From the IMG/VR virus record IMGVR_UViG_2648501437_000025: a DNA stretch of 38,438 nt, one strand, 5' to 3'. Numbering within the stretch: the stretch's first letter is position 1; each line of letters opens with the position of its first letter. The position numbers were made by a program, and so were the translations under genes. Below, piece by piece: positions 2,962 through 36,985 of the stretch. A model generated the notes under the pieces. It saw nothing but the letters and a program-made list of their open reading frames with translations. It searched no databases and was not told where the DNA came from. This stretch comes from a virus. Lineage: Duplodnaviria > Heunggongvirae > Uroviricota > Caudoviricetes.

Positions 2962-3924
2962 TCAACTAATCGCCTCAGCACTGGCTTTTGCGATCACGGC
3001 AGCCGGGGAGTTTTTTTTTCTGGTTATCGTAGGTGCTTCATCTGCTGCGGTAATGCTCAGTTGAACCTGGATAATGTCAGTATTACCACCGTCAGGCCAT
3101 TCACCTGACACCTGAACCTTCGGGAAACTGAAAGTGTATGCCCCCTCTCCATTCGAAAGCGTGAAGCTGAACGGAACTGTTTCTCCAGTCAGTGTTTTAC
3201 TCCAGATTTCCCACGCGGCTTTAGACCATGAAAGCGTCACCGTACCGGACGGTGTAAAAGTAGTCGGAATATTTGCTCCTGCATAAGGCGAGCCAGTCCC
3301 GATACAACGCTGTGTCTGGAGTTTGTTATCGAACTGAATATCAAAACTGTCGATACAAAAACCGTTACCTCCGGCAACACCATTCAGGCTTACTGCTGAA
3401 ACCTCCTTAAACGAATAACGTAGCTTTCCTGCACTATCCACAGGTTCGCCTTTGATAAAATTCGTATCATCGGCCTTTGATTCCCAGTCCAGTCCGGCAA
3501 AGGTTACGGTCGCTGTAATATCGCCGTCGTTAGGGATCTGCATTTTCCATGAGCCAACCTGCGCTCCTCTGACGACAGAGGCAATTCCGACATCGGACGC
3601 ATAGGTCGCCAGAGAAAATGTTATTCGCTCATTCCCCATTGTCAGAGAATCGCCTGACCATTCCGCGCCGAAACAGGATGCAAGAAAATCATCATGTTGA
3701 CCCCAGCGAAATTTGGTACCAACATCACCGCCGACATCCACAGTGCCAGGCGTCGCCCCCTGAGCCATCCGGGAGCCACCAATCTCATTATTTTCGCCTT
3801 TATTCTGGGTGGGTTTTACTCCCCAGCTTGTGCGTTTTAATAAACTCCAGTCACCACTTGCTGGCGTAGTGCCTGCAACCGTCTCCCGGATAAATGCCGA
3901 GATAACCTTTGCACCTGAACTCAC
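2962..3924 (-). CDS. Major tail (tube) protein
   Basis: 320-aa Gly/Thr/Ser-rich ORF upstream of the chaperone/tape measure genes; canonical siphovirus position. Confidence 0.6.
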   Translation of the reverse strand: MSSGAKVISAFIRETVAGTTPASGDWSLLKRTSWGVKPTQNKGENNEIGGSRMAQGATPGTVDVGGDVGTKFRWGQHDDFLASCFGAEWSGDSLTMGNERITFSLATYASDVGIASVVRGAQVGSWKMQIPNDGDITATVTFAGLDWESKADDTNFIKGEPVDSAGKLRYSFKEVSAVSLNGVAGGNGFCIDSFDIQFDNKLQTQRCIGTGSPYAGANIPTTFTPSGTVTLSWSKAAWEIWSKTLTGETVPFSFTLSNGEGAYTFSFPKVQVSGEWPDGGNTDIIQVQLSITAADEAPTITRKKNSPAAVIAKASAEAIS

Positions 3925-28771: not shown

Positions 28772-29194
28772 TTAATGAACAATGACAGAATCGTCGGAAG
28801 ACCCGCCACCGCTGAAATATGCTTTACGGTAAACGGCCTGGACTGCATCATCATGCGCATCAATTGCCGTACTCAACGCTTCCTGCGCCGCCAGTAATGC
28901 ACGGCGTTCCAGGGTATCGAAGATGCAGAGTCGGTGACGCAGCTCGCGCGGAAGAATTGCCAGAACCGCAGGGATCAGTTTCTGAATTTTTTCCCTTTGC
29001 GCTTTCGTTTCACCTTTCAACCAACGGTGATAGATATTCTGCTGATTGTTCCAGTCCTTGCCTGGTACCAGGGGCAATTCGCCGCCCCCCTGGCGCAGAT
29101 ATTCTTCAGTAATTGCGTTAGCAACCCACGCCTGCCCTTTTTCGGCTGCTAGGGCTAACAACACTGATTCGATGTGCTCATGCCTGATTTTCAT
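28772..29194 (-). CDS. ydaT: YdaT-like protein
   Basis: 140-aa protein MKIRHEHIESVLLALAAEKGQAWVANAITEEY... closely resembles Rac YdaT from memory; start overlaps the Cro-like stop (ATGA). Confidence 0.7.
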   Translation of the reverse strand: MKIRHEHIESVLLALAAEKGQAWVANAITEEYLRQGGGELPLVPGKDWNNQQNIYHRWLKGETKAQREKIQKLIPAVLAILPRELRHRLCIFDTLERRALLAAQEALSTAIDAHDDAVQAVYRKAYFSGGGSSDDSVIVH

Positions 29195-29433
29195 GAATCA
29201 ACCGCTCCTATGCTGTTTTCGCTATGCTTACCGTCTGGGGGGAATACATCGTCAAGTCCACAATGAGCACCAAGCCGATTAAGGGTGGAAACAATTTTTC
29301 TGCACTCCTCTAGCCCAGGGGTACGAAAATTTGCTTCGTAATTTGCCAGTCGGCTTTGTATCCACCCTAGCTGAACAGCGAGTTGTCTTTGAGACAGACC
29401 AAGTTGTTTTCGATATGTTGAAATTTTGTTCAT
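29191..29433 (-). CDS. Cro-like XRE-family HTH regulator
   Basis: HTH segment LGLSQRQLAVQLGWIQSRLANYE; first gene of the leftward operon, GGAGG RBS; divergent from the repressor gene. Confidence 0.7.
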   Translation of the reverse strand: MNKISTYRKQLGLSQRQLAVQLGWIQSRLANYEANFRTPGLEECRKIVSTLNRLGAHCGLDDVFPPDGKHSENSIGAVDS

Positions 29434-29529
29434 TAAAAACCTCCGACGACAATTTTAAACACACCTTGTGTTTTACGGTCAAGCTATTTTGTGTTTTATA
29501 TAAATCACGATTCGTGATACAAGGACGAA
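29434..29529. promoter_or_regulatory. Divergent promoter/operator region of the immunity switch
   Basis: Two copies of TTGTGTTT(TA), a 15-nt perfect palindrome ATCACGA-T-TCGTGAT just upstream of the repressor RBS, and a minus-strand TTGACC/17 nt/TTTAAA promoter-like element. Confidence 0.55.
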
Positions 29530-29949
29530 ATGGAAAAAGAAAACGAAAAAATTGCCGCTAGTAGGCTCAATGACAAAATTGCAATGCGTCTTAAAGAGCG
29601 CAGGCAGAAGCTTGGTTTATCTCAAGGAAAACTTGCTGAAATCTGCGGATGGACGCAATCGCGTATAGGTAACTATGAGGCGGGCAGCAGAAATGTTGGA
29701 GTGCATGATGCTGTCGTCCTGGGAAAGGCGCTGGGCATATCTCCTCCTGAGCTCCTCTTTGGGGAAAAAGACTCTTCTGAATTGTGGTTAAATGAATCCC
29801 AACGAAAACTTCTTGAGTTGTTTAACCAGCTACCGGGCTCAGAACAACAACGAATGATTGAGCTATTTGAAGTCCGGCTAAAAGAAATCGACGAGTATGT
29901 AGAAAAATATTTGAGGGGCAGGCTTAAAGATACCCCCCCACCGGAGTAA
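29530..29949 (+). CDS. Prophage repressor (CI-like XRE HTH, no peptidase domain)
   Basis: HTH segment LGLSQGKLAEICGWTQSRIGNYEAG; divergent from the Cro-like gene; followed by its own terminator. Confidence 0.7.
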   Translation: MEKENEKIAASRLNDKIAMRLKERRQKLGLSQGKLAEICGWTQSRIGNYEAGSRNVGVHDAVVLGKALGISPPELLFGEKDSSELWLNESQRKLLELFNQLPGSEQQRMIELFEVRLKEIDEYVEKYLRGRLKDTPPPE

Positions 29950-29970
29950 TGATCTTGCTATCACAGTAAT

Positions 29971-29994
29971 ATGCCAATCAGCCCGCTATCAGCG
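29971..29994 (+). terminator. Intrinsic terminator after the repressor gene
   Basis: gcccgc-tatca-gcgggc hairpin followed by T7. Confidence 0.6.
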
Positions 29995-30041
29995 GGCTTT
30001 TTTTGTACCATCATCATATGACACGCCACCATAAAAACACA

Positions 30042-30076
30042 TTTTGTGTTGACATACAAAAACCCTTTGTGTTTAA
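30042..30076 (+). promoter_or_regulatory. PL-like early-left promoter with operator repeats
   Basis: TTGACA, 17-nt spacer, TTTAAT, overlapped by two TTTGTGTT repeats also present in the 29434-29529 region. Confidence 0.5.
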
Positions 30077-30251
30077 TAAGCATATCCAAACAACGCCCCA
30101 CCGGAGAACGGCAGGACAATACCTCGAGTTATCCAGCCACTGAACAGGGCTAAGTAGCCAGCCTGAGGCATACGAACATGACGGCAGTTGTTGATTGATA
30201 CAAAGCGCAGTAGATAAAACGTTCCGCCACCCGGCGTTAAGGGGAAAAAAG

Positions 30252-31004: not shown

Positions 31005-31468
31005 AAAGTTTCAACAATGGAGTAAATACATCCAACATATCAATAACTCTCAACTGTAAGGGTATTGAAATGTTAACACAAGCTCTCGCTGTAGGGGTAT
31101 AGCCGAGACCACCGAAGCCCGGAGGTGGTGAAATAAAACTGGGCGCAACACGAAGGCGCATTTCCGATATCCATAAAGAGTCGGTCTTGTCTGTTAAATT
31201 TAAATGGTGGGAGTGCGCCTCCGGTTGTAAATAACGACATTGCTGTGTGTAGTCTTGGCGGCATCAGTTTTTTCTTGAAGTTCGGCTGATGTCCGCCCTT
31301 TTTAAAGTGAATTTTGTGATGCGGTGAATGCGGCTAAGCGCACGCGGAACAGTTAAAAGCATCAGTGTTATGGGTGGATTATCCGGCGTTAATTGTTAAC
31401 TGGTTAACGTCACCTGGAGGCACCAGGCACCGCATCAACAAAGTTCATTTGTGAAAATGGAGATAATT

Positions 31469-31690
31469 ATGATTGCTCATCACTTCGGAACTGATGAAAT
31501 ACCTCGTCAGTGTGTGACTCCTGGTGATTATGTTCTTCATAACGGCCGGACATATATTGCCTCGGCAAACAATATTAAAAAGCGAAAGCTTTATATTCGT
31601 AACCTGACCACAAAAACATGCATTACTGACTGCATGATTAAAGTCTTCCTCGGTCGTGATGGTTTACCTGTAAAGGCGGAGTCATGGTGA
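31469..31690 (+). CDS. kilR: KilR cell-division inhibitor
   Basis: [46 protein letters not shown]... near-identical to Rac KilR as I remember it; GGAG RBS. Confidence 0.8.
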
Positions 31691-36886: not shown

Positions 36887-36985
36887 ATTGCATTGTATTC
36901 AAATTAAAACTTCATAGCTGATTATTAATAATCAACATCGGGCGTCAATTTCAGTCTAACATTGGCGCCTGCCAGAGGTGATGCG

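Follow-up and report, generated by a model that had tools for sequence, protein, structure and literature searches.

The DNA analysed here, the window, is a stretch of 38,438 nucleotides from a Caudoviricetes record (IMG/VR, IMGVR_UViG_2648501437_000025). Within it we have concentrated on positions 29434-30076, which take in the gap between two divergent genes (for a Cro-like protein, leftward, and a repressor, rightward), the whole of the rightward gene and the sequence just 3' of it. Judging from its sequence, this region is probably the lysis/lysogeny immunity cassette of a full-length Rac-type lambdoid prophage inserted at ttcA and arranged on the lambda plan. It is an ordinary kind of element, of an immunity type and operator specificity that were previously uncharacterised, and a literature search found nothing on this particular immunity allele. 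A preliminary description had already taken the region for an immunity switch, and the four TTGTGTT(T) copies, the 15-nt palindrome, the terminator, the PL-like promoter and the ATGA overlap that it listed were all found in their stated places. The gap between the divergent Cro-like and repressor genes is 96 bp.

Over the region tested, the window is 99.9% identical to an Escherichia coli chromosome from the tail genes to intR. The matching chromosomal prophage is a full-length Rac-type lambdoid element of ca. 40 kb that adjoins ttcA, with the gene order tail genes, trkG, lysis genes, ydaW/V/U, ydaT, then kilR, recE, recT, xisR and intR; to the right of the repressor gene lie a ydaG-like open reading frame (ORF), ydaF (DUF1391) and sieB. 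Rac of K-12 is the same prophage at the same chromosomal site with flanks 93-95% identical, but in it the segment 29201-30093 is replaced: by blastn the homology runs at 95% up to 29200 and is back at 30094 with 93%. Against phage pPE4, whose cro is the same, homology stops at 29433 and resumes right after the PL -10 element, so that a sub-cassette from 29434 to ca. 30080 differs. The two sets of break-points make the region coincide with an exchangeable immunity cassette. This window-type cassette is carried by 153 of 5426 complete E. coli genomes (ca. 3%), among them O157:H7, O145:H28 and avian pathogenic E. coli (APEC) strains.

Candidate operators and promoters of the cassette

The octamer TTGTGTTT occurs exactly at 29466, 29489 and 30067, with TTGTGTTG at 30044, and these are the four copies of TTGTGTT(T) previously reported, two between the divergent genes and two over the PL-like promoter. 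The word itself is not enriched over the whole window (five hits vs. 2.3 expected, a number reached in 9 of 100 shuffles), so it is the clustering and phasing of nearby copies that is informative; for the three exact copies, which lie within 610 bp, the Poisson estimate is ca. 5e-4, corrected for the number of such intervals. Every TTGTGTT(T) belongs to a 17-bp inverted repeat, AAACACA-N3-TGTGTTT, of which it makes up the right half (Table 1). What had been described as operator-like repeats thus remains candidate operator sequence, but the unit is the 17-bp dyad and the octamers are its right halves.

Along the same lines, the 15-nt palindrome ATCACGA-T-TCGTGAT (ATCACGATTCGTGAT), which had been regarded as a separate element, is present at 29504-29518 but is not a different kind of site: it belongs to OR3, whose 17-bp frame is that of OR1 and OR2 and which follows OR2 at a distance of 23 bp. 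The OR3 half-site is a variant, AATCAC, that has the CAC-N5-GTG core in common with the other operators. Neighbouring centres are 23 bp apart throughout, within OR as within OL, and measured from the repressor ATG those of OR1, OR2 and OR3 stand at about -65, -42 and -19 (that of OR2 is 42 bp 5' of the ATG). The full palindrome of OR1, the 23-bp phasing and a box for the YdaT protein across the junction of the Cro-like and ydaT genes had been missed by the preliminary description. A third OL site was not found in the window allele, while relatives have a half-site just 3' of the PL -10, 23 bp past OL2.

Taken alone, a perfect palindrome with 7-nt arms is nothing rare in the window (16 vs. 8.9 +/- 3.1 expected). 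When the whole 17-bp motif was searched at a threshold of at least 12 of 14 positions, OR1, OL1 and OL2 were the only matches in the 38 kb (0.67 expected), and a triplet of sites spaced 23/23 bp appeared in none of 400 random sequences. The motif was defined after seeing the sites, and independent significance was taken from conservation in relatives. Prophages of E. coli, Salmonella, Citrobacter, Dryocola and other Enterobacterales with repressors 55-85% identical to that of the window have the same three sites at -73/-50/-27 or -68/-45/-21 from the repressor ATG. OR3 is kept at -27 in these relatives and is also kept in phage mEp213, and the relatives' OL has two or three sites over a TTGAC promoter located 3' of the terminator. 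The 87 loci of the window's own type that we compared fall into 32 different intergenic and 48 different PL sequences. Among these the half-sites, the TTGAC motifs of both PR and PL, the PL TTTAAT and the sequence GTGATA never change, and variation is seen in the N3 centres, the inter-operator linkers and the left half of OL2. Read from these alignments, invariant half-sites amid variable spacers are the classical footprint of selection on binding sites.

The candidate promoters interlock with these sites. The left half of OR2 overlaps the PR -35 and its right half abuts the PRM -35. PL mirrors this layout, with OL1 ending in the -35 TTG and OL2 reaching the -10, and the earlier proposal of a PL-like TTGACA/17 nt/TTTAAT promoter overlapped by operators was confirmed in these terms. 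GTGTTTAAT at PL is invariant in the 48 distinct sequences and the bases 3' of it vary. A consensus promoter scanner misses both PR and PL because position 2 of the -10 is T and not A; its sole match, a promoter-like sequence on the minus strand at 29977-29949, found no support.

OR3 enters the PRM -10 by 2 nt (29518-29519), and the 15-nt palindrome is probably inside the spacer of the repressor's own candidate promoter. It had been placed just before the repressor ribosome-binding site, and this probably does not hold, as the AAGGA before the repressor ATG overlaps the -10 of that promoter and the layout points to a leaderless mRNA. The arrangement of -10, 6 nt and ATG recurs in nine of nine aligned loci, after start-codon correction for locus L004 and mEp213. 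In lambda, the cI mRNA from PRM is leaderless and has this same layout. Leaderless mRNAs have been demonstrated for paaR2 of CP-933P (PMC8630535) and for racR of K-12 (PMC9638921), and we predict one for the repressor of the window. At the other end of the gene, the terminator said to insulate it is indeed there: a stem at 29980-29998 with 6 G-C pairs is followed by seven T, and relatives keep the hairpin structure though the sequences differ. An Rfam scan by E-value found no known RNA family in the switch itself, and a Trp-leader match at 29906-30005 (24.5 bits vs. 41) is simply this terminator.

Some features weigh against the layout as drawn here. OR2 and OL2 are half-sites only. The candidate -10 elements of PR and PL (TTTAAA and TTTAAT) are without the near-universal A at position 2, and the -10 assignment of PR is uncertain, with an alternative, TAAAAT, at 19-nt spacing that gives the better hexamer in the window and Salmonella alleles, though not in other relatives. 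Besides, cryptic examples are common among Rac prophages, which means that some components of the circuit could be inactive.

Table 1. Coordinates of the genes and candidate regulatory features of the immunity region.
Feature	Position	Strand	Sequence	Remarks
Heteroimmune cassette vs. K-12 Rac (cro, OR, repressor, terminator, OL/PL)	29201..30093			blastn break-points
ydaT gene (cII analogue, 140 aa)	28772..29194	-		Pfam YdaT_toxin (PF06254) E 1.7e-11; PHROG 'CII-like activator' E 1.5e-36
Putative YdaT box	29184..29201	-	TTGATT-CATGAA-AATCAG	one mismatch to TTGATT-N6-AATCAA; ydaT ATG in spacer
Cro-like gene, 80 aa	29191..29433	-		HTH_3; stop overlaps ydaT start (ATGA, 29191-29194)
Candidate rightward promoter in Cro-like gene	29389..29419	+	TTGAGA-19-TATGTT or TTGAGA-17-GATATG	weak consensus match
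Shine-Dalgarno of Cro-like gene	29440..29444	-	GGAGG	from sequence; invariant in 32 distinct intergenic regions
PR-like promoter	29454..29482	-	TTGACC (29482-29477)-17-TTTAAA (29459-29454)	TTGAC invariant across relatives
Candidate OR1	29457-29473, centre 29465		AAACACA-CCT-TGTGTTT (AAACACACCTTGTGTTT)	perfect 17-bp palindrome; over PR spacer and -10
Candidate OR2	29480-29496, centre 29488		CAAGCTA-TTT-TGTGTTT	consensus fit in right half only
PRM-like promoter	29495..29523	+	TTTATA-17-TG-a-TACAAG	then 6 nt GACGAA, then ATG
Candidate OR3	29503-29519, centre 29511		AATCACG-ATT-CGTGATA	in PRM spacer
Repressor gene, 139 aa	29530..29949	+		HTH_3; N-terminal HTH of 434/P22 type and C-terminal helical hairpin
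Intrinsic terminator of repressor (lambda t-imm analogue)	29980..30005	+		8-bp stem, 3-nt loop, seven U
Candidate OL1	30035-30051, centre 30043		AAACACA-TTT-TGTGTTG	last TTG is start of PL -35
PL-like promoter	30049..30077	+	TTGACA (30049-54)-17-TTTAAT (30072-77)	11/12 consensus matches
Candidate OL2	30058-30074, centre 30066		AAAAACC-CTT-TGTGTTT	over PL spacer and -10; right half alone conserved

The regulators and a possible division of the operators

The AlphaFold model of the repressor has a five-helix helix-turn-helix (HTH) domain and a C-terminal helical hairpin (predicted local distance difference test, pLDDT, 88.7). No S24 peptidase domain was found, Pfam giving HTH families only and the model showing only HTH and hairpin, which excludes RecA-stimulated self-cleavage. 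The S24 self-cleavage domain marks the lambda/P22/434 subgroup and not the switch architecture as such. Over its full length the repressor aligns with DicA by BLASTP (30% identity over 125 aa, E 2e-15, including the C-terminal motif LFxxLPxSEQ), and the NCBIfam DicA model is matched at positions 4-131 of 135 with 58 bits, under its cut-off of 101; on these alignments it is a distant member of the DicA family and not an equivalog. The family comprises proteins of 125-141 aa from Enterobacterales prophages. Foldseek against the PDB returned for the C-terminal domain only HTH matches and a loose SinR alignment with a root-mean-square deviation of 8 A, and a comparison of the repressor with RacR of K-12 found no detectable similarity (E 3.3).

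The same DNA-binding domain has other partners elsewhere. In the cI proteins of mEp213, mEpX1 and VT1-Sakai it is joined to an S24 self-cleaving domain, and in the window's repressor family to a short helical domain instead; residues 12-79 of the window repressor are the domain in common with mEp213 (locus L022 1430-1500 and 2220-2290, with the same operator family). The sequences indicate domain shuffling between SOS-inducible and non-cleavable repressors.

The Cro-like protein is 45% identical to the HTH region of the repressor over 42 aa and, on this similarity, is a paralogue of its DNA-binding domain. A 23-nt inverted repeat, 83% complementary, at 29381-29403 and 29611-29633 codes for the LGLSQ..LA segment of the HTH in both genes, and is, from its position, a reflection of this paralogy. 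With YdaS of K-12 there was no BLASTP alignment (Pfam assigns HTH_3 only to the Cro-like protein), and no homology was found with DicC. The two regulators of the window have the recognition helix Q-S-R-[IL]-x-N-Y-E in common, which reads QSRIGNYE in the repressor (Gly-type at residue 5) and QSRLANYE in the Cro-like protein (Ala-type).

This single residue goes together with a single base of the operators. We surveyed 175 loci, which reduce to 93 distinct combinations. Where residue 5 of the repressor helix is Gly, position 3 of OR1 is A/A in 57 of 61, and where it is Ala, it is T/T in all 32. The Cro-like proteins follow the same pattern at OR3: with Ala, position 3 is T (right half 65/65, left half 64/65), and with Ser it is C in 27 of 27. 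Over the 93 combinations OR3 does not go with the repressor residue, nor OR1 with the Cro residue. The window itself has a Gly-type repressor with A-type OR1, OR2, OL1 and OL2, and an Ala-type Cro with a T-type OR3 in both halves. There is also a natural chimera, represented by phage pPE4 and ca. 10 E. coli genomes, in which Cro is identical and the identity ends exactly at the cro ATG; beside it stands a different, Ala-type repressor, and all the operators are of the TCAC type.

As the OR3 half-site tracks Cro and OR1 tracks the repressor, Cro may prefer OR3. The comparative sequence data suggest this preference, and one of the repressor for the remaining operators. Such preferences would produce a reversed order of occupancy like that of lambda, and for YdaS and PaaR2 of CP-933P an order of this kind has been measured, with YdaS repressing PRM first (PMC8630535). 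The idea that the palindrome is functionally distinct therefore survives in part, in that its half-site covaries with Cro and not with the repressor, but it belongs to the same operator frame. More tentatively, we propose a code of one residue and one base, in which Gly, Ala or Ser at helix residue 5 would read A, T or C at half-site position 3 and so divide the operators; the survey makes such a code possible, and we hold it with rather less confidence than not. Four points tell against this division. No more than ca. 6-7 of the lineages in the covariation are independent; the extended -10 of PRM runs over the right half of OR3, whose A/G base may then reflect promoter constraint; the Yersinia lineage L027 breaks the residue-base rule; and Cro might here bind OR1 and OL poorly, unlike in lambda.

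The strongest competing explanation starts from two of these points. OR3 could serve negative autoregulation of the repressor only, with no preference of Cro for it, and the A/T/C pattern at position 3 would come from constraint on the PRM -10 or from shared ancestry. The overlap of the right half with the extended -10 (GTG[A/G]TA) and the small number of independent lineages fit this explanation, as does the report that YdaS of K-12 Rac does not repress racR (PMC9638921). However, the left half of OR3, which is outside the -10, also has T in 64 of 65 entries with an Ala-type Cro, repressors obey the same rule at OR1, clear of PRM, and YdaS of CP-933P represses PRM first (PMC8630535), and for these reasons we consider autoregulation alone unlikely.

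A second possibility, to which we give a distinctly smaller chance, is that the octamer TTGTGTTT is itself the operator unit, present as four direct repeats for one regulator, and that the palindrome is an unrelated site of another regulator, 5' of the ribosome-binding site. All four octamer copies do have the same orientation, OR2 and OL2 conserve only the octamer half, and the palindrome half-site deviates at position 3 and tracks Cro. On the other side, OR1 and OL1 are complete dyads in which left and right halves are equally invariant, the palindrome lies in the 17-bp frame and 23-bp phase of OR1/OR2 and has the CAC-N5-GTG core in common with them, and both regulators have one recognition helix. 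Dimeric binding to dyads is the rule for HTH proteins with the 434/P22 fold, which also speaks against direct repeats.

It is very improbable that the palindrome is a site for the cII-like YdaT, or an RNA hairpin in the leader of the repressor mRNA, and not an operator of repressor or Cro. The region between racR and ydaS is partly protected by K-12 YdaT (PMC11879457), the sequence AATCA within the palindrome is similar to the AATCAA half-site of YdaT, and an alternative promoter, CGGTCA-17-TATAAA, would put the palindrome in a 5' untranslated region. But the orientation and spacing of its half-sites are unlike TTGATT-N6-AATCAA, and no site of that form was found in the intergenic region. The YdaT proteins of the window and K-12 are 96% identical while the intergenic regions are unrelated, OR3 is kept in relatives without ydaT (mEp213, with a lambda-type cII), and 7-nt arms with a 1-nt loop cannot fully close. 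Least credible of all is that a cryptic prophage has left the cassette as a decayed remnant, its repeats being relics without a present regulatory role: Rac prophages are often defective and frameshifts affect the sieB and tail-tube genes in the closest genome, but the three regulator genes are all intact, operators and promoter hexamers are invariant beside variable neighbouring bases in the 87 loci, and the carrier genomes have the cassette on an otherwise complete 40-kb prophage.

The proposed circuit and known switches

Under the reading of an immunity cassette with divided operators, dimers of the repressor would fill the AAACAC-type sites, OR1 and cooperatively OR2, OL1 and OL2, and shut PR and PL. 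Bound at OR2, whose centre is near -42, the repressor would activate the leaderless PRM transcript, and at high levels it would fill OR3 as well. Cro, preferring OR3, would turn PRM off first; its helix has Ala where that of the repressor has Gly, and both halves of OR3 have T in place of the A of the other operators. YdaT, translationally coupled to Cro, would bind the box at its own start codon and, much as cII does at PRE, increase the transcription that runs rightward to the repressor gene, and PL would drive the operon ydaG/ydaF...kilR...recET...xis-int.

As for induction, no LexA box (CTGT-N8-ACAG or consensus-like) was found in the 38-kb window, and control by LexA or through a Gifsy-like antirepressor was rejected on this ground. 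The annotation of the near-identical prophage lists neither DinI nor an antirepressor gene, although an antirepressor acting in trans from elsewhere would still be compatible with this.

The YdaT arm of the circuit follows K-12 closely. The gene product is 96% identical to YdaT of K-12 Rac, and the box spans the ATGA junction with the same position and spacer as the footprinted K-12 box ATGATTCATGAAAATCAA (PMC11879457), by analogy with which we infer YdaT binding at 29184-29201. The ATGA overlap of the Cro-like and ydaT genes had been noted before and lies at 29191-29194; the wording 'co-translated' should read translationally coupled. In K-12, YdaT at the box over the ydaT start activates a reverse promoter inside ydaS and so raises racR expression (PMC11879457). 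The candidate promoter at 29389-29419 is ca. 190 bp from the YdaT box, the same distance as PracR4 in K-12 (PMC11879457), and to call it an analogue of PRE or PracR4 is speculative. A near-perfect palindrome resembling the YdaT box, CTGATTATTAATAATCAA, occurs at 36918-36935, ca. 50 bp 5' of the xisR start, with one mismatch to TTGATT-N6-AATCAA; it is a possible analogue of the cII-dependent PI promoter that lambda has for xis/int. The K-12 YdaT paper does not mention a box of this type near xisR (PMC11879457).

The likeness to lambda itself extends from the divergent repressor and cro genes to the 17-bp dyad operators 23-24 bp apart, with centres at about -65/-42/-19, one operator ending in the -35 TTG and another running into the -10. 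The -10 followed by 6 nt and ATG, the terminator after the immunity transcript, a recognition helix starting with Gln-Ser and half-sites of the xAxCAC type are also alike. Unlike lambda, the window has a repressor of 139 aa with a short helical C-terminal domain in place of an S24 peptidase, two evident OL sites against OL1-3, a Cro of the all-helical HTH_3 fold that is repressor-like as in 434/P22, the unrelated YdaT in the role of cII, and no N gene after PL. Phage mEp213 has a cI that is alike in the DNA-binding domain only (59% identical), and it has the same operator family and three-site OR layout, with three sites in OL. It differs in the LexA-like (S24) cleavage domain of its cI and in having a lambda-type cII and an N gene.

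Among switches with a small, peptidase-less repressor, the PaaR2-YdaS-YdaT system of CP-933P is alike in its intergenic region, of 97 bp there and 96 bp here (PMC8630535, PMC9986795), in the leaderless repressor mRNA, demonstrated there and inferred here (PMC8630535), and in YdaT acting at TTGATT-N6-AATCAA (PMC8630535, PMC9986795). There, repressor and Cro analogue bind overlapping operators and the Cro analogue represses PRM first (PMC8630535), to which the window may be likened by its sequence. It differs in its operators, which are 18-bp repeats of the GTTTAGTAA type, and in the paaA2-parE2 toxin-antitoxin pair, which is not present behind the repressor of the window. The RacR-YdaS-YdaT switch of K-12 Rac has, like the window, a YdaT box over the ydaT ATG at the same place, and three dyad operators between the divergent genes, each with an N3 spacer; its racR transcript is leaderless, as predicted for the repressor of the window (PMC9638921, PMC11879457). 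At the place equivalent to PL it has TTGACA-17-TATAGT with RacR operators at the -35 end and in the spacer. It differs in the RacR sites, TAGGC-n3-GCCTA, in that ydaS and ydaT are apart and not overlapping, and in having no obvious terminator after racR. From the protein comparisons above, the repressor and Cro of the window are functional analogues of RacR and YdaS, not homologues.

DicA-DicC of Qin offers the same order of a cro-like gene, repressor, DUF1391 gene ... DicF-like RNA ... division inhibitor, and it has, as do GfoR/GtgR of the Gifsy prophages, a small non-cleavable repressor (PMC3121763). The window repressor, however, falls under the NCBI DicA cut-off and DicC is unrelated to the Cro-like protein. 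Unlike the Gifsy prophages, the 38-kb window has no LexA box, dinI or antirepressor module that we could find (PMC3121763). A tblastn search of a phage collection returned no Gifsy record among the best 40 of 44 records.

Neighbouring features and significance

A noncoding leader of ca. 120-150 nt lies at 30094-30251, just 3' of PL. Its conservation is strong between prophages whose immunity modules differ (L002 3030-3165, L007 3023-3160, L009, L010, L013-L016 and L028), and it is also found in phages SPN3UB, ST64B, mEp237 and SEN34, mostly unannotated. Its consensus, GTCATCAAGGCAGGACGCCCACGAAGTAGCTGCCGGCGGCATACGAAACACCGGATGAGATGAC...AACGTTCCGCCAGCCTGGCG, from which the window and K-12 Rac copies have diverged, folds into an enclosing stem with hairpins, with a few compensatory changes, and the fold of the window copy is no better than that of shuffled sequence (z = 0.21). 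The leader had no Rfam match, and an antitermination RNA of the HK022 put type was discarded, as blastn found nothing similar in the early region of HK022. The leader could act in cis, in antitermination or in processing. In locus L007, at ca. 3165-3185, the start of the first ORF past the leader has GCTCTTTAACAA, identical to the core of rrn boxA.

The right border of the cassette has two further features. On the minus strand, 30094-30118 forms a terminator-like hairpin of 10 pairs followed by TTGTTTGGAT, which could stop leftward antisense transcripts, e.g., from sieB, entering the cassette; on the plus strand the PL leader starts with the same segment. The 11-nt sequence CCCCACCGGAG is repeated exactly and in direct orientation at 29936-29946 and 30096-30106, bracketing the terminator and the OL/PL segment. 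Its first copy encodes the C-terminus of the repressor, the second lies where homology to K-12 Rac resumes, and it may be a recombination scar or chance (ca. 0.07 expected). Farther to the right, upstream of kilR, there are Rfam matches to DicF (31244-31298, 41 bits vs. a gathering threshold of 48) and to STnc100 (31300-31483, 42.6 bits vs. 47); at the corresponding position K-12 has the annotated small RNA KilS.

The cassette represents an uncharacterised immunity type of the Rac prophage and leaves the understanding of lambdoid switches unchanged. The exact candidate operators, promoters and cassette borders are useful for annotation, for reporter design and for the prediction of superinfection immunity among Rac-like phages, and the region is a natural case of modular immunity swapping with precise junctions, at the cro ATG, the PL start and the ydaT box. 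The comparative data offer, moreover, a simple and testable recognition rule for the widespread pair of a DicA-like repressor and a Cro-like HTH protein. If the proposed code is true, the Gly-type repressor would own OR1, OR2, OL1 and OL2 (AAACAC) and the Ala-type Cro would own OR3 (AATCAC), and the reversed occupancy order known from lambda would become almost digital. Such a code would also account for the swapping of repressor and operators beside an unchanged cro, as in pPE4, which would provide a new immunity without Cro having to evolve again.

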